DNA of 63,938 bases, the filler included, from Basidioascus undulatus (lineage: Eukaryota), in the NCBI GenBank assembly GCA_000826855.1. It is 5 parts of 5 records of this genome, joined end to end, with 100 filler letters (N's around TTAATTAATTAA, not from the genome) between each part and the next. Parts side by side here need not be neighbours in the genome. Positions count along the whole stretch, not along the records: positions 52,812 to 63,938 come from JTLS01001042.1; 4 more parts are not named here. One strand, 5' to 3'. Under the pieces are notes generated by a model that worked only from the letters and a program-made list of their open reading frames with translations, searched no databases and was not told the origin of the DNA. Shown here piece after piece: positions 13,116 through 63,938 of this stretch (positions within the stretch are counted from its first letter, which is position 1; every line of letters starts with the position of its first letter). The translations under genes and the position numbers were made by a program.

Positions 13116-13215
13116 NNNNNNNNNNNNNNNNNNNNNNNNNNNNNNNNNNNNNNNNNNNNTTAATTAATTAANNNNNNNNNNNNNNNNNNNNNNNNNNNNN
13201 NNNNNNNNNNNNNNN
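13116..13215. other. Artificial contig linker (N44-TTAATTAATTAA-N44)
   Basis: Six-frame stop linker flanked by Ns; identical at four places. Confidence 0.99.
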
Positions 13216-52711: not shown

Positions 52712-52811
52712 NNNNNNNNNNNNNNNNNNNNNNNNNNNNNNNNNNNNNNNNNNNNTTAATTAATTAANNNNNNNNNNNNNNNNNNNNNNNNNNNNNNNNN
52801 NNNNNNNNNNN
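52712..52811. other. Artificial contig linker
   Basis: N44-TTAATTAATTAA-N44. Confidence 0.99.
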
Positions 52812-53158
52812 CTCTCCTTCTCCCCTGCATTTCTCTTTTTTTTCTTTTCTTTTTTATTTTTTTATAAAAAAAAATAAAAAAAAAAAAAAAGTCAGGCCAA
52901 GGGGCAGGGGAGCAGAGCCTTCTCTTCGAAGGCGAAGCCCATTAGGGGCAGGGAAGAAGAGCACTGCATTTTGAAGCCTTCCGGAGAGCAGGGAAGAGAG
53001 CAGCGCATCAAAATGCAAAGATGCAGAGAAAGCAAAGGGATGAGGGTGCCCTATAGGTATCCGATGACGGATCCGACTGGTGTGAGCCGGTCGGTTGTAC
53101 TCGCAGTACAGAACGGTGGCGAGTATGCTGAGTTGAGTGCGATGTTGCATGCCGTGTG

Positions 53159-54610
53159 ATGCTACTGACGTTGGTACTGATTCCGCTGGTGACGGCTGGA
53201 CTGATTGCACTGGGCTGGCAAGCTGAGCTGTGGTCAGAGCGAGCCAATTTTGTTCTGGCTCTACTGGGGACGACTGTGACGTTTACCGTGTCGATCGTGC
53301 TGTGGCTCCGGTTCGATGACTCGTTTGTTGGCTACCAGTTCGTGCAGGAGACACTGACAACAAGTTTTTGCTCGTTGCACTTCGGTGTCGATGGTGTCGG
53401 ACTTGTGTTCGTACTGCTGACGACTCTGACTATGCCGATTGCTGTACTATCATCGTGGTCAAACGTGAGCCGACAGACGGGGCTATACTTGGTGCTACTT
53501 CTGGTACTGGAGTCACTGCTGGTTGCGGTGTTCACTGTCACTGATCTGTTGCTCTTCTACATTTTTTTCGAGTCGGTTCTGATCCCACTCTTTTTTATTG
53601 TGGGGATCTGGGGCGGATCTGGTCGTGAGCGAGCGGCGTTCCTGCTCTTTCTCTACACGCTTGCTGGCTCGCTCTTCATGCTGCTTGGGATCCTGGTCGT
53701 CTACAGCCACGTCGGTTCGACTGACTTTACTATGCTACGACTGGCCGGGATCGCGCCTGAGTGGCAGACTGTGCTGTGGCTCGCCTTCTTTTTGAGCCTG
53801 GCAGTCAAGACGCCACTGGTACCGTTCCACATCTGGCTGCCACGAGCCCACGCCGAGGCCCCGGTTGCCGGTAGCATTATCCTAGCTGGTCTGATCCTGA
53901 AGCTAGCGACGTACGGTTACATCCGTGTGCTACTCGAGCTGCTCCCTGATGCGACTTCGTACTTCCAGCCACTCGTACAAACGATCGCTGTAATCACGCT
54001 AGTCTACTCATCACTGGCCACACTACGCCAAACTGACTTCAAGGCACTGATTGCCATGAGCTCGGTTGCCCACATGGCAGTCGTCATCCTGGGACTGTTC
54101 AGTAACACTCTTCAGGGGATCGAAGGCGCCTTGGCTCTCAGTCTCGCTCACGGTTTGGTTTCACCCGCACTTTTTGTACTGGTCGGTGCTGTGCTCTACG
54201 ACCGATTCCACACCCGGGTCATCCGATACTACCGCGGGGTCACTGTTTACATGCCGCTCTTCTCGGTAATCTTTTTCCTCTTCACACTCGCAAACGCTGG
54301 AACCCCGTTGTTCCTGAACTGGAGTGGGGAAGTCATGGCACTGATGGGTGCATTCCAGCGTAACCCTGTTCTAGCTGCGCTTGGTGCATCAGGTATCGTC
54401 TTCTCTGCAGCCTACTCTATCTGGCTCTACTCTCGGATTAGCTTCGGAGCTTGGAGCAACTACTTGTCACACACAACGGACCTTTCACGACGTGAGTTCG
54501 CTGTGCTCTTCCCACTTCTCGTACTGACACTAGTACTCGGTATCTGGCCTAACGTAATCCTAAACAGCCTGCACGCTACAGTTACCACACTACTTTACGC
54601 TGCTGGATAG
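53159..54610 (+). CDS. nad4: Mitochondrial NADH dehydrogenase subunit 4
   Basis: Intronless 483-codon ORF with FYIFFESVLIPLF, AVKTPLVPFHIWLPRAHAEAP, LILKLATYG and SSVAHM; TAG stop. Confidence 0.97.
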   Translation: MLLTLVLIPLVTAGLIALGWQAELWSERANFVLALLGTTVTFTVSIVLWLRFDDSFVGYQFVQETLTTSFCSLHFGVDGVGLVFVLLTTLTMPIAVLSSWSNVSRQTGLYLVLLLVLESLLVAVFTVTDLLLFYIFFESVLIPLFFIVGIWGGSGRERAAFLLFLYTLAGSLFMLLGILVVYSHVGSTDFTMLRLAGIAPEWQTVLWLAFFLSLAVKTPLVPFHIWLPRAHAEAPVAGSIILAGLILKLATYGYIRVLLELLPDATSYFQPLVQTIAVITLVYSSLATLRQTDFKALIAMSSVAHMAVVILGLFSNTLQGIEGALALSLAHGLVSPALFVLVGAVLYDRFHTRVIRYYRGVTVYMPLFSVIFFLFTLANAGTPLFLNWSGEVMALMGAFQRNPVLAALGASGIVFSAAYSIWLYSRISFGAWSNYLSHTTDLSRREFAVLFPLLVLTLVLGIWPNVILNSLHATVTTLLYAAG

Positions 54611-55268
54611 TAACTTCCCCCGCATCACTTCTTCTTCTCTGCCGTATCGACCGCTCCGCTCTCTCTTCCGGCTCCCCTTACCCCCCCACCGCATTCTACT
54701 CCGCAGGACTGATGCAGGGGTCCGTAGGAGAGAGCAACGCATCAAAATGCTGAAGAAGGAGCAGAGCAGAGCAGTCGGTACGGCAGAGCAGAGCCGGAAG
54801 ATAGATGCAGGGAGAGCTTTTCATTCCCCTTTCCTTATCGTCTCACGATAGCAGAACTTGGTCACTGCACGTATTCGCCAAGCGTTATGACAGCGTACAT
54901 GTTTTCCCTGCATCTTCTCTCCCCGCTCTCCCTGCATTTTGCTTCGAAGGCCAAGGGGGGGGAGCAGTCCGTAGGGGAGTACCTCTCCTCTTCGCATCAG
55001 AATGCAGAGGGCAGACTAATAAGTTAGAGTCTGCAAGAGGTACGGATGCGGTGGGGGGAAGTCAGCACACTGCTCTACACTGCTGGATAGTGACTTCCCT
55101 GCATCTTTGCATTTTGATGCGCTGCTCCCAATGAAGGGGAGCGGAAATGCGAAGGGAGAGCTTATCACTCCCCTTTTATAGTCGTCTCTGCGAAGCGATA
55201 GACAATAGCTTAGTCGGTCACTCTTATTGTCTCACGATAGCCTGGAGTAGTAAAGGAAGCACGCTGCC

Positions 55269-55339
55269 AAGCCCATAGTTCAGTGGCAGAACGGGCAGCC
55301 GATAATTGCCAAGCAGAGGTTCGATTCCTCTTGGGCTTA
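55269..55339 (+). tRNA. trnI: tRNA-Ile(GAT)
   Basis: Acceptor AAGCCCA/TGGGCTT, D stem GTTC/GAAC, anticodon arm GGCAG-CCGATAA-TTGCC, T arm AGAGG-TTCGATT-CCTCT. Confidence 0.92.
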
Positions 55340-55723
55340 GCGCTGACTGACGGCTGTGTCTGGCCTAAGTCGAGAACTTGCTCTCCCCCCCCGCCCTACG
55401 GACTGCATCAAAATGCGAATGCAGAAGCATCTCTCTCTCTAACCCTAATAAGTAAGAGAAGGCGAAGCCGGCTCCTCTTACCCCCCACCGCATTCTCTCT
55501 TCCGTACCGACTGCTCTCCGAAGGAGGAGCGGAGAAGAAGAACTGATGCAGGGGTCCGTAGGAGAGAGCACCGCATCAAAATGCAGAAGAAGCGACACCA
55601 AGTTACGCCGAACTCCGAGTGCGTAGCTGTAGCTGTAGCAGTAGCAGTAGCAGTAGAGAAGGGTACAGCTACGTTATTGTCTCACGATATGTGCGACCGT
55701 GGCCACAGCGCATCAAAATGCAG

Positions 55724-55795
55724 AGAGCCCAGAGGGAGTCGAACCCTGAGAGTACGAGCTTGCAACTCGCCTGCTGACCGTCAGCTTCTAGGCTC
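55724..55795 (-). tRNA. trnC: tRNA-Cys(GCA), non-canonical fold
   Basis: Minus strand reads GAGCCTAG AA GCTG-ACGGT-CAGC AG GCGAG-TTGCAAG-CTCGT ACTCTC AGGG-TTCGACT-CCCT CTGGGCTC T. G1-C72 and U73 fit Cys identity. Confidence 0.85.
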
Positions 55796-56392
55796 GCTTG
55801 TGTCGCACTCTCTTCATCCCCCCTACGGACTCCGCTCTTCCTCTGCATTCTGATGCTCTGCATTCTGATGCGCTGCATTCTGATGCGGAGGAGAGGAGCA
55901 CTGCATCTTCTCTAACCCTAATAAGTTAGAGTGATGCGCTCTGCCGTACCTCTCCTCTTCTTCCAGCTCCCCCTGCATTTTGATGCGGGGGGAGCAGGGA
56001 AGAGGGAGGGCAGACTGCTCTCCTTCTCTGCGAAGCCCTGCATCTTCTCTTACTTATTAGGGTCTTACTTATTAGTCTTACTTATTAGGGTCTTACTTAT
56101 TAGTCCTTCGGAGAGAGAGAGTGATGCGAAGGGGCGGGCTTCTTCTTCCAGCCCTAACCCCTGCCGTACCTCCCCTCTTCTTCCAGCTCCCCCTGCATTT
56201 TGATGCGGGGGGAGCAGGGAAGAGGGAGGGCAGACTGCATCAAAATGCGGAATGCGGTGGGGGGTAAGGAGAGCAGGGAAGAGAGAGCCGGAAGAGAGAA
56301 GGGGGAGGGGAGTGTCGCGTCGGTTCGGTGTCGTCGTCGTCGTTGTCGTAGTAGTCGTAGGCTTCGATCGCGGTTACAGGTACGCCGTCCGG

Positions 56393-57049
56393 CTAGTTGT
56401 GGTACTCGGACTCAGGCGTAGTGTGCGAGACCTGGTCAAGACAGAGTGCGATCGGTCCGACCATGCCGAGCAGTAGCAGGATGCTGCCAAGGATCAGCCA
56501 GACTGCACCGTACGTGTACAGACCGTGTCCGATGGCCTCCAAGTTAGTAAATTCGAGTACGGTGCTGTCGATAGCGGCTGATGAGAACGCTTGGTGTACG
56601 GTCTCAGCGGCTCCGTTGGCGTGACCCGACTGACTGACGCCGAAGATCGCCTGCTGAAGTGACGTGTACAGTCCAAGCAGTCGGTTCTGGCTGGCAGTCT
56701 CGGCTAGACTTACTGGTAGCACACTGATCAGTTCAAAAAATAGTGTTGCACCGACGATCAGTCCGAGCGGCAGGTTCTGTGTGTACTCACGTCCAACTTC
56801 GATCAGTTCAACCAGTTGCAGGTTCATCATCATGACCACGAAAAGGAACAGCATCGCGATAGCGCCAACGTACACGATCAGGTAACTCAGTCCGACGAAT
56901 CCGATCCCGAGCAGTACCAGGTAGCAGGCACTCATAACAAATGTGCCGATCAGGAACAGCACTGAGCTCACTGGGCTCTTGGCGGTAATGACCAGCAATC
57001 CGCTGACAATCGCACCTGTAGCAACCAGGTCCAGTAGTACGGCGTTCAT
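56393..57049 (-). CDS. nad6: Mitochondrial NADH dehydrogenase subunit 6
   Basis: VITAKSPVSSVLFLI, YLIVYVGAIAMLFLFVVMMMN, IGHGLYTYGAVWLIL and LLLGMVGPI. ATG at 57049, TAG stop. Confidence 0.96.
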   Translation of the reverse strand: MNAVLLDLVATGAIVSGLLVITAKSPVSSVLFLIGTFVMSACYLVLLGIGFVGLSYLIVYVGAIAMLFLFVVMMMNLQLVELIEVGREYTQNLPLGLIVGATLFFELISVLPVSLAETASQNRLLGLYTSLQQAIFGVSQSGHANGAAETVHQAFSSAAIDSTVLEFTNLEAIGHGLYTYGAVWLILGSILLLLGMVGPIALCLDQVSHTTPESEYHN

Positions 57050-57421
57050 AATATGTGTGGACAATCCTGCCCGCCCAATCAGGCTGGCGAACCCTTAAGG
57101 CCTCCGCGAGGTACTGACGTCTGAGCACTCGGCCATGGCCAGGCAACAGACATTGCTGAAGTCTTGCGCTCAGTCCAGCTCATGCATGGTTTCGAGCCAG
57201 CTGAGCTCTGAGCTTGGTTTTTTTTTGGGTATTTACCCCAAAAAAAAAAGACACACCGCACTTCCCTGCATCACTCTTTTTTATTTTTTTTGTTCTTTTT
57301 TATTTTTTTTGTTTTTATTTTTTTTATTAAAAAAAATAAAAAAGAAAAAAAAAATAAAAACAAAAAATCATAAACAAAAAAAATAAAAAAGTCATGCGAG
57401 GGGAGAGTAACGCTGGTAGTC

Positions 57422-57492
57422 AGCCTCTGCCGGGAATTGAACCCAAATCCTACCGTTAACAGCGGTACGCTTTACCATTAAGCTACAGCGGC
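57422..57492 (-). tRNA. trnN: tRNA-Asn(GTT)
   Basis: GCCGCTG..GCTT-AATGGTA-AAGC..TACCG-CTGTTAA-CGGTA..TTGGG-TTCAATT-CCCGG CAGAGGC. Confidence 0.92.
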
Positions 57493-58511
57493 CTCGACAG
57501 TGCTGTACGGTACAACGTGCACCGCGCTACCTATAGCTGACCGGTAGTATCGCTCTCTTCTTCTTCGCCCCCTACGGCATTCTGACTCCCCTACGGACTG
57601 CAAGAGGACCCCTCTTCTCTCCCCTACGGACTGCAAGAGGACCCCCACCGCATCCGTACCTCCCCTCTGCATTCTGATGCGTGGAGGGCAGACTCTAACT
57701 TATTAGTCGGTACGGAGAGAAGATGCAGCGCATCACCGCTCTAACTTATTAGGGTAAGAGCAGAAGATGCAGAGAGGGGAAGCGCTTCTTCTTCTTGTGC
57801 TCCGCTCCTTCCGCTCTTAGGAGCAGAGCAGTCGGTACGGCAGAGCAGTCGGTACGGCAGAGCAGAGCCGGAAGAGAGATGGGGGGCTCCTTCTTCCCCG
57901 AAGGACTGCTTTTTCTCTAACTTATTAGTCTGCCCTCCACGCATCAGAATGCAGAGGGGAGGTACTCCTTCTTCTTCCGGCTCTGCTCCTTCTTCTTATG
58001 CTCTTAGGAGCCGGAAGAGAGAGCGGAGCAGAGCGCATCACTTCGAAGATGCAGAGAGAGAAGAGCGTGGAAGAGAGCAGACAGGGGAAAAGAAAAAGAA
58101 GGACTGCCCTTATTTTTTTATTTCATTAGTGCATTGCTTTTTCTCTTTCGGGTCCTCCCCTCTGCATTCTGATGCGTGGAGGGCAGACTAATAAGTAAGA
58201 GAAGAAAAGTGGATGCGGGTGGTAGAGTATTCAAAGCGTAGTGCTCCATTGTCTCACGATACTTGCTGTTATTTTAGCCTTTGCCAGCCAAAAAAGGGTG
58301 CTGACAGCTTGATTGCTGTCAGGCTAAAGGTAGCCTTCTCTCTCTTCCGGCTCTGCTCTGCTCTGCTCCTAAGAGCGGAGCGGAGCGGAGCAGAGAAGAA
58401 GAAGCCCTGCATCTTCTCTTACTTATTAGGGTCCGTAGGAGAGTGATGCCCTCCCTGCATTCGCATTTTGATGCAGATCCCAAGGGGGGGGGGGAGAGCC
58501 TATTCGGTCCT

Positions 58512-58582
58512 GGAGAATTAGCTGAGTGGTTTAGCGCGCATCTTACACGTGCGATACGGCGGTTCGATCCCGTCATTCTCTA
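58512..58582 (+). tRNA. trnV: tRNA-Val(TAC)
   Basis: Acceptor GGAGAAT/ATTCTCT, anticodon arm CGCAT-CTTACAC-GTGCG, T arm GGCGG-TTCGATC-CCGTC. Confidence 0.93.
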
Positions 58583-58746
58583 CTGTGCTGAGTAACAACG
58601 CCGCCAACCGACCGTACGATTCCAGCCTGTGCTGAGTCGCCGATAGTACCTGTCGCAGGGCTGTCGACACTGAGTCCGAGTGCGCTGCTGCTGACTGTCC
58701 GTGACTGGTTCAGTAGTACGCCGCTGAGTGCTGAGGCGAAACGACC

Positions 58747-59511
58747 ATGACAGCCATGCTATCACAACTGTTTCTGACGCCGGTGTTGTGCGACGCTCCG
58801 TACCCGTGGCAGATCTCGTTCCAGGACGGTGCGAGCCCGACATTCGAGGGAATCACTGAACTGCACGACTCCATCTTTTTTTACCTGGTAGTCATCGCTG
58901 TCGGTGTCTTCTGGGCACTGGGTAGCACTATCCTGAACTTCAACTCAGCCAACAACGGCATCGCGTACAAATACGCCAACCACGGCACTTTGATTGAGCT
59001 GGTATGGACTATCACGCCAGCCCTGGTGCTGATCGCCATTGCGTTCCCTAGCTTCAAACTGCTGTATCTGATGGATGAGGTTATCTCGCCTAGCATGACC
59101 GTCAAGGTCGACGGACACCAATGGTACTGGAGCTACGAGTACTGCGACTACCTAAGCGAGGGTGGCGAAGCGCTTGAGTTCGACAGCTACATGGTGCCTG
59201 AGAGCGACCTGGAACTTGGCCAGCTGCGACTGCTTGAAGTTGACGCCCGAGTCGTCGTACCGGTTGACACACACATCCGATTTATCGTGACTGCCTCGGA
59301 CGTTATCCATGACTTCGCCGTGCCTTCACTAGGCCTTAAAATCGACGCCGTACCCGGCCGGCTGAACCAAACGTCAGTGCTAGTACAGCGTGAAGGCACG
59401 TACTACGGTCAGTGCTCAGAGCTGTGTGGTGTTGGACACGCGTTTATGCCGATCGTGATCGAAGCAGTATCGCTTGAGAAATACCTGGCCTGGCTCGACT
59501 CGCAGTTCTAG
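58747..59511 (+). CDS. cox2: Cytochrome c oxidase subunit 2
   Basis: DAPYPWQISFQD, GHQWYWSYEY, DVIHDFAVPSLG and the CuA motif CSELCGVGHAFM; TAG stop. The start could be the second ATG at 58756. Confidence 0.98.
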   Translation: MTAMLSQLFLTPVLCDAPYPWQISFQDGASPTFEGITELHDSIFFYLVVIAVGVFWALGSTILNFNSANNGIAYKYANHGTLIELVWTITPALVLIAIAFPSFKLLYLMDEVISPSMTVKVDGHQWYWSYEYCDYLSEGGEALEFDSYMVPESDLELGQLRLLEVDARVVVPVDTHIRFIVTASDVIHDFAVPSLGLKIDAVPGRLNQTSVLVQREGTYYGQCSELCGVGHAFMPIVIEAVSLEKYLAWLDSQF

Positions 59512-59782
59512 TCGCAGGCCCTGACTCCCCTACGGTTGCCAGCCAACCTTAATATCGCTTTATCTTTCTCCTCCGCATCAGAATGCAGCGCATCACCGCT
59601 CTAACTAATAAGTAAGAGCAGTCCGTAGGGGATGCAGCGCATCACTTCGAAGATGCAGAAGAGCACAGTTGCTGCTATATCGTGAGACAATGTTTTGCTC
59701 GTATCCGTAGCGCATCACTCTAACTTATTAGGGTAAGAGAAGATGCAAAGGGGACTCCAGGCTGCTGCAGTCAGTCGATTGA

Positions 59783-60223
<441 letters not shown>

Positions 60224-60224
60224 G

Positions 60225-60307
60225 GCGAGCATGCCGGAATGGTATACGGGTCTCACTCAAGCTGAGATGGTCACACGACCGTGAGAGTTCAAGCCTCTCT
60301 GCTCGTA
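60225..60307 (+). tRNA. trnL: tRNA-Leu(CAA)
   Basis: Acceptor GCGAGCA/TGCTCGT, anticodon arm TCTCA-CTCAAGC-TGAGA, long variable arm GGTC-ACAC-GACC, T arm GAGAG-TTCAAGC-CTCTC. Confidence 0.93.
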
Positions 60308-60486
60308 GTCGTTGCAGGCCTGGCTCGTATGCTCTTCCTCTGCCTCTTCTCTCCGTACCGACTAATAAGTTAGAGTGATGCGCTTCTTCTTCCGGCTCTG
60401 CTCCTTCTTCCGCTCTTAGGAGCAGAGAAGAGAGAGCGGAGCAGAGCGCATCACTTCGAAGATGCAGAGAGAGAGGAGAAACGACC

Positions 60487-60560
60487 GGTAGTTTTAGCTC
60501 ACGTGGCAGAGCGCCGGTATGTGGCACCGGAGGCACCTGGTTCGAGTCCAGGATTCTACC
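60487..60560 (+). tRNA. trnH: tRNA-His(GTG) with encoded G-1
   Basis: G-1/C73, D stem GCTC/GAGC, anticodon arm CCGGT-ATGTGGC-ACCGG, T arm CCTGG-TTCGAGT-CCAGG; two U-U mismatches in the acceptor stem. Confidence 0.9.
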
Positions 60561-60562
60561 CT

Positions 60563-60982
60563 GATCGCTAGCAGCCCACAGCTCTGAACCACTGGGCCAG
60601 TCCGATCGACGGTCAGTACCGACCCGGTCAGCTGGCTTGGAAAGTCCGACGCTGACTCAGGCTTCAGATCACAGCAGGAGCTGAGCCAAGTCTACAGTGA
60701 GTGCCGAACCGTTCAGTCCGCCCCCCCCCCTCTCCCTGCTTTAGAAAGCGCATTACTTCTTCTTCTTATGCTCTTAGGAGCCGGAAGAGAGATGCAGTGC
60801 TCCTCTTCTTTAGAAGAGAGAGCGGAGGGGGGGGAGAAGGAGTGTGCTGGACACTAAATTAAGCACGTGTCGCCTGGTATCGATCAGGCAGCGGTTTGGA
60901 AGCCGAACGCGGAGCGCAGCGCTGGTTTCAGTTTACTCAGGTCACACAATTTGGCTTACTCGGAGCTACCAGGCTAGCGATC
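60563..60982 (+). ncRNA. rnpB: Mitochondrial RNase P RNA
   Basis: CR-I GGAAAGTCCG (60639) and CR-V ACACAATTTGGCTTA (60944) can pair as P4 with a bulged U. Terminal helices GATCGCTAGC/GCTAGCGATC and AGCTCTGA/TCGGAGCT (P1), P2 CTGGG/CTCAG, P3 GCCAGT/GCTGGC, and CR-II-like AAGTCTACAGTGAG are also present. Confidence 0.88.
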
Positions 60983-60985
60983 GCT

Positions 60986-61059
60986 GTCGGAATAGGCTCA
61001 AGTGGTTAAACCATACCGCTCATGACGGTAATTTGACGGTTCGAATCCGTCTTCCGGCC
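60986..61059 (+). tRNA. trnM: tRNA-Met(CAT)
   Basis: Acceptor GTCGGAA/TTCCGGC, anticodon arm TACCG-CTCATGA-CGGTA, T arm GACGG-TTCGAAT-CCGTC. Initiator versus elongator is not resolved. Confidence 0.9.
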
Positions 61060-61879
61060 AGGTTGCAGTCTCTCCCCGCATTTCCGCTCCTCTCTCTTCC
61101 GTACCGACTGCTCCGCTCTCCTTCTCTGCATTCGCATTTTGATGCAGATGCGCTGCATCTTCTCTTACTTATTAGTCGGTACGAGAGTGATGCCCTCCCC
61201 CACCGCATCAGTTCTTCTTCCCTGCCCCTAATGGGCTTCGCAGAGAAGGCTCTTCTCCTCTACGCATCAGAATGCAGAGGAAGAGCATAGAAGAGAGAAT
61301 GCAGTGCATTACTTCTTCTTCTTATGCTCTCTAACCCCCCACCGCATCTGCATCTTCTGCTCCGGGGGAGCGGAAATGCGATGCAGGGGTAAGTGGAGCC
61401 GGAAGAGAGATGCAGTGCTCCTAAGAGCGGAGGGGGGGCAGGCTTCGCAGAGCAGAGCCGGAAGAGAGAAGTGGCGACTGCAGTATCGTCTCACGATGTT
61501 TACTACTGCCTCGGCTCTGTCTCATCACGGTTACGACTGTCGGATCATTTTCACGATACACGTGTACTGAGTGCTTGCTATCCTATTGTCCTACGATGTC
61601 TACTCAGGCTCTTCCATCGCTTTTTGCTTTTTCTGCGAAGCCCCACTAATGTCTTCTTCTCTAACCCCCCCTGCGGCGTACCTCTTGCAGACTGCATCTT
61701 CTCTAACTTATTAGTCGGTACTCCCCCTACGGACTGCTCCTCCCCCTTCGCATTAAAATGCAGGGAGAGCGGAGAGAGAAGATGCAAAGGGGAGGACTAC
61801 AGTACGACGGTCTGGCTGCACTGACTGTTGCATCGTCTTACGTTGTCGATGCCGATGCCGGAACACCAGGGGAGTCTGA

Positions 61880-62026
61880 CTAGAGTTTAGTTACAAGTAG
61901 TCGGCTGACTTGCAGTTCAACGAAGTGTGGCAGCACGTAGGCGGCGAACACGTAGTACAGCAGTCCGATCGCACCGAAGGCGAAGAACAGCTGGTTAACG
62001 AAGAAGAAAGGGAGTAGCTGTGGAAT
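61880..62026 (-). CDS. atp8: ATP synthase subunit 8 (48 aa from ATT; alternative ATG at 62050)
   Basis: (I/M)[12 protein letters not shown]...[19 protein letters not shown], matching the canonical fungal MPQL.PF.F.NQ start; TAG stop. Confidence 0.93.
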
Positions 62027-63289
62027 TGTATGGTTAGAGTCGCTGAGCATCACACCCAGGCTGACGAACCGTAATGGTTCGTAACTCAAGCCGAGTGATC
62101 GAACGATACTCGGAGCTCAGTTACGAGCTTGATGAGTTGCTAGTCGACCGTTTACAAGGTTTCGTAGTGGGTCGACTTCCTTTAGAACACGTCTGCTTTC
62201 TCCTACCGCTCTTACCCCCCCGCATCTGCATCTTCTGCTCCGGGGGAGCGGAAATGCGATGCAGGGGGGTTAGAGCACAGCATCCCTTCCCTAACTTATT
62301 AGGGTAAGACTGCATCTTCTCTTACTTATTAGGGTCTTACTTATTAGTCTGCCCCTCCCCCTCCCCCTCTGCATCTCTCTTCCCTGCTCCCCCCGCATCA
62401 AAATGCAGGGGGAGCTGGAAGAAGAAGTGATGCGCTGCATTCTGATGCGAAGAGGAGAGGAGAGGAGAGGTACGCTTCTTCCGCTCTTACTTATTAGGGT
62501 CCGTAGTCCTTCGGAGAGCACTGCTCTCTCTCTCTTCTGGGGAAGAAGAAGCCCTGCTCCCTAACCCCCCCCGCATTCTCTCTTCCGTACCGACTGCTCT
62601 TCTTCCGCTCTCTAACCCCTGCATCGCATTTCCGCTCCCCCGGAGCAGAAGATGCAGATGCGGTGGGGGGGTAAGGGGAGCAGAGCGCATCACTCTAACT
62701 AATAAGTAAGAGAAGATGCAGAGAGAGCCTTCATTGGGAAGAAGAACTGATGCAGGGGGGTAAGGAGCATCGCATCAAAATGCAGAAGGAGAGCGGAGGG
62801 GGGGGGGCGGATTGACTAACAAACAAGGCATCGTGCGACGATAGGACATCAACCCCCGGAGCACTGCATTTTGATGCGCTGCATCTGTCTTCCGGCTCTG
62901 CTCCCCTTACTTATTAGTCTAACCCCCCTGCATTCTCTCTTCCGGCTCCACACCCCTTCGCATCTGCATCAAAATGCGAATGCAGGGAGAAGGAGAGCAC
63001 CGCATCACTCTTACCCCCCCGTGGGGGGGTTAGAGAAGATGCAGAAGAAGAACTGATGCGGGGGGGTAAGAGAGAGCCGCATCAAAATGCAGAAGAAGAA
63101 GTGATGCCCACTGCTTGACTTTTTTTTTTGTATTTGTTTTTATTTTTTTCTTTTTGATTTTTTTTTATAAAAAAAATCAAAACAAAAAATAAAAAAGAAA
63201 AAAAAAGAGAAAGCGAAGTGAGAGGGAGGGGCGGCTGCATAGCGCATCAAAATGCAAAGGGGAGTTAGTCTGCGATGCAAAGCGTTAGG

Positions 63290-63583
63290 CTACGATTGCA
63301 CCGGCAGATCTTCGAAGGCGTGGAACGGCGTCGGTGACGTCAGTGACCACTCAAGGGATGATGCAGTAACGGCGTTCGACTCGAACTGTGGCGTGCTCTG
63401 GAAGTACGAAGGGACAGTCCAGTGGTTGCCTGTTACTGGTTCACCGTTGGCAAAGATGTCGTATACGATGTACACGAACAGCCCAGTGGCTACAACTGAG
63501 ATCATTGAGCCGAAGCTTGAGATGGCGTTCCAAGCAGCGAAGGCGTCAGGGTAGTCAGGGATACGTCGAGGCATACCGCTTAG
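63290..63583 (-). CDS. cox1: Cytochrome c oxidase subunit 1, terminal exon
   Basis: LSGMPRRIPDYPDAFAAWNAISSFGS...SSLEWSLTSPTPFHAFEDLPVQS*. Homology stops abruptly upstream of 63583. Confidence 0.95.
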   Translation of the reverse strand, partial: LSGMPRRIPDYPDAFAAWNAISSFGSMISVVATGLFVYIVYDIFANGEPVTGNHWTVPSYFQSTPQFESNAVTASSLEWSLTSPTPFHAFEDLPVQS

Positions 63584-63938
63584 CAAATCTCTCAGGTTAC
63601 TTGTCGCGCTTCTTATGCTCCGCCGTACCTCTCCTCTTTGGAGGGCAGACCGCTCCGCTCTCTAACCCCCCCCCGCATCAGTTCTTCTTCTCTGCTCCTT
63701 ACTTATTAGTCGGTACGGTTAGAGCCTTCATTGGGAAGAGAGAATGCAGGGGGGTAAGGGGAGCAGAGCAGTCTGCCCCTCCCCCTCTGCATTTTGATGC
63801 GCTGCATTCGCTTTTATCTTCCGGCTCTTCCTCTGCATTTTGATGCGCTGCATTTTGATGCGCTGCATTTTGATGCGCTGCATTTTGATGCGCTGCATTT
63901 TGATGCGCTGCATTTTGATGCGCTGCATTTTGATGCGC
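63584..63938 (-). other. 3' end of a probable group I intron in cox1, invaded by repeats
   Basis: The expected HFLG codons are replaced by ...GAGATTTG, ending in G (omega-G) directly before CTA AGC GGT ATG. The intron core is not visible in the window. Confidence 0.6.
63834..63938. repeat. Tandem array of seven 15-bp units TGCATTTTGATGCGC
   Basis: Perfect copies run to the end of the window; the same unit is dispersed through the mitochondrial spacers. Confidence 0.97.

Follow-up and report, generated by a model that had tools for sequence, protein, structure and literature searches.

Fungal mitochondrial RNase P RNAs generally retain the helices P1 and P4, with CR-I and CR-V as conserved regions, and some of them are reduced to P1 and P4 (PMC3790967). 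RPM1 of Saccharomyces cerevisiae needs protein for its activity; the partner, Rpm2, occurs in budding yeasts only (PMC3790967). In basidiomycete mitogenomes, the RNase P RNA gene, rnpB, was formerly considered absent (PMC3790967). Reports of it exist for Microbotryum lychnidis-dioicae, Schizophyllum commune, as well as Ustilago maydis (PMC3942027), for Sporisorium scitamineum (PMC4466345), for Hannaella oryzae, where the gene is 211 bp long (PMC8193148), and for Malassezia slooffiae, in which trnH, rnpB and trnM lie together and for which the authors proposed a recent acquisition (PMC10113387). An earlier note on the DNA studied here described the gene as rarely reported in basidiomycetes. The rarity stands, yet at least six species are named in the portions of the literature cited above. 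In the literature that we searched, the Seif et al. structure papers excepted, we found no description of trnH-rnpB-trnM synteny as a general arrangement.

The locus that we analysed lies between two tRNA genes on one contig of the window, by which we mean the whole stretch of DNA that was analysed, 63,938 nt in length. The features that define it are as follows.

60488-60561 (60560 by Rfam), plus strand: tRNA-His (gtg), found by ARAGORN; 45.5 bits with the Rfam tRNA model
60563-60982, plus strand: candidate mitochondrial rnpB, 420 nt including a 125-nt repeat insertion, recognised by motifs, helices and synteny
60986-61059, plus strand: tRNA-Met (cat), found by ARAGORN; 44.1 bits with the Rfam tRNA model

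It is highly probable, judging from sequence and predicted pairing, that 60563-60982 is a genuine mitochondrial rnpB of the fungal type. The earlier note's proposal of such a gene between trnH and trnM is upheld by the combined signature of CR-I, CR-V, P4 and P1, by related contigs with compensatory changes, and by the synteny in M. slooffiae. As such, the gene is an ordinary further member of a known family, beside the reported basidiomycete genes. It shares with the M. slooffiae gene its position between trnH and trnM in a basidiomycete mitochondrial genome. However, the M. slooffiae mitogenome has ~30% GC and carries rnpB inside a large inverted repeat, whereas the present gene has 57% GC and a repeat insertion; this comparison is by description only (PMC10113387). 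The other basidiomycete genes, likewise compared by description, resemble it as sporadically annotated mitochondrial RNase P RNAs, although the 211 bp of H. oryzae contrast with 420 nt here, or ~295 nt without the insert (PMC8193148). RPM1 is similar in being encoded between two tRNA genes and in retaining P1 and P4, but its neighbours are tRNA-fMet and tRNA-Pro, and it is extremely A/U-rich and far more reduced (PMC3790967).

It is important to note that the window is not one molecule. It consists of five contigs joined by four runs of N, each with the linker TTAATTAATTAA mid-way; the linker 12-mer starts at 13160, 26366, 39561 and 52756, and the last run of N occupies 52712-52811. Contigs 1-4 carry nuclear-type genes, namely RRN3, a TRIP12-like protein and CDC20-type WD40 repeats; a protein atlas search with one ORF from these nuclear contigs gave no usable match. 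Contig 5 (52812-63938) is the only mitochondrial contig of the five. It encodes nad6, cox2, atp9 and seven tRNA genes (by ARAGORN), in addition to the following two genes.

53156-54610, mitochondrial contig: nad4-type antiporter subunit
61883-62026, minus strand: atp8, an ORF of 48 codons matching the Pfam fungal ATP8 family with E = 4e-17

The atp8 ORF has ATT at the position of the family's start methionine, so that its start codon is either this ATT or a TTG 63 nt upstream. The gene content (nad4-type, nad6, cox2, atp9 and ATP8), together with the relatives of cox2, identifies contig 5 as both mitochondrial and basidiomycete. Organism names are attached to 10 of the 120 best cox2 relatives listed, and eight of these 10 are basidiomycetes: Rhizoctonia three times (80-82% identity), Jaminaea, a Ustilago-like entry, Sporobolomyces, and Cryptococcus twice; the remaining two have bacterial labels, which are most likely contamination.

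The mixture of gene types in the window might suggest that the locus is a nuclear copy of mitochondrial DNA, or part of an assembly chimera, and not a working organellar gene. However, because N linkers separate the contigs, the mixture is an artefact of concatenation and not a nuclear insertion, and the mitochondrial ORFs are intact. In sequencing run X2, a copy that diverges from 60548-60675 does occur at a depth of 25, but the X2 contigs that match the locus itself have depths of ~515-690. We therefore regard a nuclear or chimeric origin of the locus as very improbable. The divergent copy lies on a 2109-nt contig, where it comprises the trnH end and 113 nt from the start of rnpB and is distinguished by four substitutions and a 5-nt deletion, and it may itself be a nuclear copy of mitochondrial DNA.

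With 53% GC, the mitochondrial contig is unusually GC-rich for a fungal mitogenome. Its protein genes have 52-55% GC, and the high value is not due to repeats alone. Within this GC-rich genome, two long imperfect palindromes of T-runs and A-runs (57276-57391 and 63114-63218) form very AT-rich islands, which may be candidates for an origin or promoter. The contig stops within a perfect tandem repeat of a 15-nt unit (63833-63938; 7.1 copies), which runs off the sequence.

Returning to the candidate gene, the catalytic-core architecture is visible in the predicted RNA: a long P1 closes the ends, and is followed by P3 and P4, with a probable P2 ahead of P3. The signature elements are the two conserved regions that contain the strands of P4.

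60639-60650, plus strand: CR-I, containing the P4 5' strand (60642-49)
60944-60958, plus strand: CR-V (ACAnAA, then 3 nt, then a P4 3' strand of the GGCUUA type), with the P4 3' strand at 60950-57

The P4 proposed in the earlier note (AAG-U-CCGA with TTGG-CTT) is present, with 7/7 standard pairs between 60642-49 and 60950-57 and, at U60645, the bulged U that is universal in this helix. CR-I has 10 consecutive bases that are the same as in the annotated E. coli rnpB, with which the candidate also shares the CR-V pattern, the bulged-U P4 and, with its probable P2, the order P1-P2-P3. The distance from CR-I to CR-V is 305 nt. The CR-I/CR-V pattern matches once in the 63,938 bases of the window; 100 shuffles gave no match. 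We also used a strict descriptor, built from E. coli rnpB and the relatives described below, that consists of a regular expression for CR-I, another for CR-V, and 7/7 P4 pairs, with the two regions 150-450 nt apart. This descriptor recovers the annotated E. coli rnpB and the bacterial rnpB in L109; in the window its single match is the present locus, and 300 Markov replicas of the window yielded none.

A second stretch resembling CR-I, at 60896-60910, does not have the bulged U. Between it and the P4 3' strand (60950-57), 8 pairs are possible, and a minimum-energy fold computed without constraints makes use of them. It may represent a competing fold or a partial internal duplication.

Relatives of the locus were sought by a cox2 protein scan of metagenome contigs, which yielded 80 loci at 59-83% identity. 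ARAGORN finds trnH in 11 of the 80, and in six of them trnM comes next on the same strand. The trnH-trnM spacers are 293 nt (L006), 292 nt (L014), 287 nt (L017) and 412 nt (L034) long; those of L042 and L044 measure ~1.2 kb. L006, L014, L017 and L034 pass the strict descriptor. In L042 and L044, P4 is of a variant form that contains a small internal loop, and so it is in L082, a locus from a genome collection with 1219 nt between trnH and trnM; the distal part of the variant P4 has two compensatory changes between L082 and L042. A fifth sequence of the L006 type, L083, has an altered J2/4 motif. Among other loci, L013 provides only the 5' half before its contig ends, and L057/L058 and L065/L068 have trnH without an adjacent trnM, L057/L058 with stretches that by eye resemble CR-I and P10/P11. 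A scan of viral contigs revealed no relative.

Three observations on these contigs deserve mention in their own right. L083 (1-20757) is chimeric, changing from ~70% GC bacterial to ~40% GC mitochondrial DNA near 9.6 kb. Fungal-type mitochondrial DNA is present in public genome bins that bear the labels Alphaproteobacteria (L083) and Saccharibacteria (L082). The spacers of L042 (10250-11437) and L044 (10298-11506) hold variant genes expanded by repeats, including a G-run of ~20 nt that is similar to the G-run palindrome found as an insert in the gene of the window.

The four loci that pass the descriptor share with the window the flanking tRNAs and their strand, CR-I and CR-V, the bulged-U P4, the position of P2 (a probable helix in the window), a P9-like hairpin, and a P1 that ends close before trnM. 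They differ in their GC content (26-40% over the whole locus) and in a leader of 26-43 nt before P1, whereas the RNA of the window starts flush with trnH. Conservation of P4 in relatives, the lack of which the earlier note would have counted against the gene, holds in all four spacers: when the window and E. coli are added, 6/6 sequences have 7/7 standard pairs. Changes on both sides of a pair occur at three of the seven positions (x2, AU/GC; x3, GC/AU; x7, AU/GC), in a set of six sequences that represents few independent lineages and was selected by motif. CR-I starts 78 nt from the start of the RNA in the window, and 63-79 nt from it across the six sequences.

In evaluating these similarities, it is important to consider that a repeat-rich and highly structured spacer might resemble rnpB by chance. 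The spacers of this contig are rich in GC-rich palindromes that fold well. The region itself has a predicted fold of -183.7 kcal/mol (z = -5.33), a value matched by 0/100 shuffles, but this is partly owed to the inserted palindrome. However, the pair of motifs is missing from the shuffles and replicas reported above, and recurs with covariation at the trnH-trnM position in unrelated, AT-rich relatives. Moreover, among the matches listed for repeat modules, none lies within 60563-60982 outside the insert's own copy, and the descriptor matches only once. A chance resemblance is thus extremely improbable, and we continue with the reading of the locus as rnpB.

The helices P1, P2 and P3 were assigned as follows.

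60563-60587, plus strand: P1 5' strand, with an outer part (60563-72), an inner part (60580-87) and a 7-nt internal loop between them; inverted repeat 10/10, and duplex
60591-60596, plus strand: probable P2 5' strand, 3 nt after P1 and abutting P3, pairing with 60927-60932
60597-60634, plus strand: P3 hairpin, which is clear, although its base could pair with either 60631-34 or 60921-25
60927-60932, plus strand: probable P2 3' strand, upstream of J2/4 (60933-60949)
60960-60982, plus strand: P1 3' strand, with an inner part (60960-67) and an outer part (60973-82); inverted repeat, and duplex

P1 comprises 10 + 8 bp, i.e., 18 bp, with a duplex energy of -30.6 kcal/mol, and its 3' strand begins 1 nt after that of P4. 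The corresponding distance is 0-2 nt in 6/6 sequences, and P1 ends 0-3 nt before trnM in the mitochondrial sequences, this short 3' distance holding in all relatives. The borders given in the earlier note are exact, in that the outer part of P1 is a perfect 10-nt inverted repeat (60563-60572/60973-60982), and its spacing is also correct: the RNA begins 1-2 nt past trnH and stops 3 nt short of trnM.

The earlier note had labelled 60580-87/60960-67 as P2. This 8-bp helix is present, but the label is wrong; because the helix is nested in P1 and has its 3' strand downstream of that of P4, it represents the long P1's inner half. E. coli rnpB and the relatives have the 3' strand of P2 upstream of their ACAnAA motif. 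The pairing of 60591-96 with 60927-32 (4 Watson-Crick and 2 G-U pairs) matches the position of P2 in these sequences, and its 3' strand resembles those of L042 and L082. We prefer it as P2 on account of where it lies with respect to P1 and P3, and of this likeness to the relatives' 3' strand, but we consider it only probable because other pairings compete. The alternatives that we set aside were 60588-90/60940-42 (3 bp), AACCA/UGGUU (5 bp), and an 11-bp extension through 60597-601/60921-25. In the relatives, P2 is a six-base self-complementary word that occurs at both sites in L006, L014 and L083; in L017, one base is changed on each side in comparison to L006 and L014, and pairing is kept. 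Since the predicted P2 3' strand is upstream of the P4 3' strand, P4 would cross P2 and form a pseudoknot.

Two features were delimited in the middle region, between the strands of P4.

60672-60701, plus strand: P9-like tetraloop hairpin (60672-75/60680-83) and the conserved block after it, from the alignment with relatives
60717-60841, plus strand: inserted imperfect palindrome of 125 nt, in a peripheral helix of the specificity-domain region, from its arms and repeat matches

The P9-like hairpin (60672-83) has four pairs and a purine-rich tetraloop, with a compensatory change in L006. Over 60672-60701, counted from the alignment rows, 22/30 positions are identical to L014. The earlier note had called 60688-60701 a CR-II-like block. 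The block is indeed present and conserved in relatives, but CR-II is a tentative label for it. Its counterpart in the relatives spans a P9 hairpin together with the 5' strands of two more helices. The L006 group has a P7-P11-like cruciform in its predicted fold, with several compensatory pairs, and a CR-IV-like stretch that is apparent by eye. When the middle region of the window was mapped onto the relatives' P7-P11 fold, there was no match, and no partners for the relatives' P10/P11-like strands were found in the window's gene. With respect to bacterial class A RNAs, the gene has no RF00010 match, no CR-IV-like motif was seen by eye, and P6, P13/P14 and a P15 loop with the CCA-binding motif were not recognised in it. 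Beyond the P9-like hairpin and conserved block, the middle region appears to be lineage-specific.

A long helix (60704-13/60890-99) encloses three hairpins, one of which is the palindrome at 60717-60841. The palindrome that the earlier note placed at 60721-60840 is real; its arms can be drawn as 60721-37/60817-33 and as 60714-30/60828-44. The insert shares modules of 15-34 nt with 22 other sites of the mitochondrial contig, and with 0 in the 52.7 kb of nuclear-type contigs. Because the modules recur in the mitochondrial contig only, the insert is a copy of a dispersed repeat of the mitochondrial genome itself. This modular family of GC-rich palindromic repeats fills the spacers over 54621-62949, e.g., at 57989-58022, 61306-61330 and 61395-61422. 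In run X2, the summed contig depth is ~19,000 over 60320-60400, compared to ~525 over genes.

Contigs from two other runs, X4 and X6, whose libraries are labelled METATRANSCRIPTOMIC and which we rated as probably DNA, cover the locus at 60657-60767 (X4) and at 60657-60725 and 60856-60980 (X6). Contig ends at 60978-60980 are uninformative about the end of the RNA, because they are common to the DNA run X5. One X6 contig joins 60725 to 60827, whereas an X4 contig covers 60657-60767 continuously and with no differences. The insert may accordingly be polymorphic, but this stays a hint because it depends on a single metagenome contig with 34 letters on the shorter side.

In a search of the whole window with all 4227 Rfam families, no RNase P family matched at the gathering score. 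Even at E<=10, the RNase P families had no match on 60400-61150, on the part before the insert (60562-60722) or on the part after it (60842-60985), while E. coli rnpB scored 318.6 bits in an identical search (RF00010). The earlier note would have counted the lack of a covariance-model hit against the gene. There is indeed no hit, but the test is too strict: the Rfam RNase P models also found no match on the relatives L006, L014, L017 and L034. Because the relatives are missed while E. coli rnpB is found, we attribute the result to the models. The MFannot paper similarly states that many rnpB genes are absent from records, and that fungal rnpB requires several taxon-specific models. An nhmmer profile of the four relatives did not match the window at E<=10, and homology to the relatives therefore rests on short motifs, layout and helices. 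A MAFFT alignment of the whole RNAs is usable in the 5' half only, the 3' half being misaligned by the insert, and the pair tables for P4, P1 and P2 were accordingly made by script and not from this alignment.

Such observations raise the possibility that the locus is a decaying remnant, in which the inserted repeat and a remodelled specificity domain have disabled the gene, while another enzyme processes tRNA 5' ends. The 125-nt repeat inside the gene, the weak P2, the unpartnered P10/P11-like strands, and the absence of a covariance-model or profile match would all agree with this explanation. However, the intact CR-I, CR-V, 7/7 P4 pairs, bulged U and 18-bp P1 are unexpected under decay, and the insert sits in a peripheral helix. 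In addition, fungal mitochondrial RNase P RNAs that are reduced to P1 and P4 exist, and PRORP is described as generally absent from fungi, so there is no obvious replacement (PMC3790967). Hence, we consider decay unlikely, and return to the interpretation of the locus as a genuine gene.

How might such a gene be expressed? Co-transcription of trnL, trnH, rnpB and trnM is likely, since trnL(caa), trnH, the RNA and trnM share a strand. In fungal mitochondria, mature ends usually arise by tRNA punctuation (PMC3790967). Cleavage by RNase Z behind trnH would set the 5' end of the RNase P RNA, and cleavage by RNase P before trnM would trim the 3' end of the enzyme's own RNA. Because P1 begins and ends so close to the two tRNAs, these cuts would release the RNA nearly at its closing helix. 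The released RNA, together with one or more nuclear-encoded proteins, would then cut the 5' leaders off mitochondrial pre-tRNAs. The earlier note had envisaged catalysis free of protein. We found no support for this claim, and such activity is unlikely for the RNA of the window: the mitochondrial RNase P RNAs of yeast, prasinophytes and jakobids were inactive without protein (PMC3790967), and P6, P13/P14 and a P15 loop went unrecognised in the present RNA. That a GC-rich, strongly paired RNA keeps some activity without protein would be a bolder, and much less likely, extension.

What goes slightly beyond earlier reports is the recurrence of the trnH-trnM slot in divergent lineages, the unusually high GC content, and the repeat inside the gene. 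Given that the trnH-rnpB-trnM slot recurs in several divergent lineages, inheritance is favoured over a recent gain. We tentatively suggest, at somewhat less than even confidence, that basidiomycete mitochondrial genomes have long carried trnH-rnpB-trnM as a conserved module. If this is true, the patchy distribution of rnpB in the phylum would largely be an annotation gap, and many trnH-trnM "spacers" would hide the gene; likewise, the 57% GC copy would show that the specificity-domain region tolerates a mobile mitochondrial palindrome. In many fungal clades, mitochondrial RNase P has yet to be identified (PMC3790967). A GC-rich basidiomycete rnpB and several unannotated trnH-trnM relatives provide seeds for a lineage-specific model, and the insertion offers a natural experiment on what the RNA can do without. 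The rule that we suggest, to look between trnH and trnM, could show whether the absence of rnpB from basidiomycete mitochondria is real.
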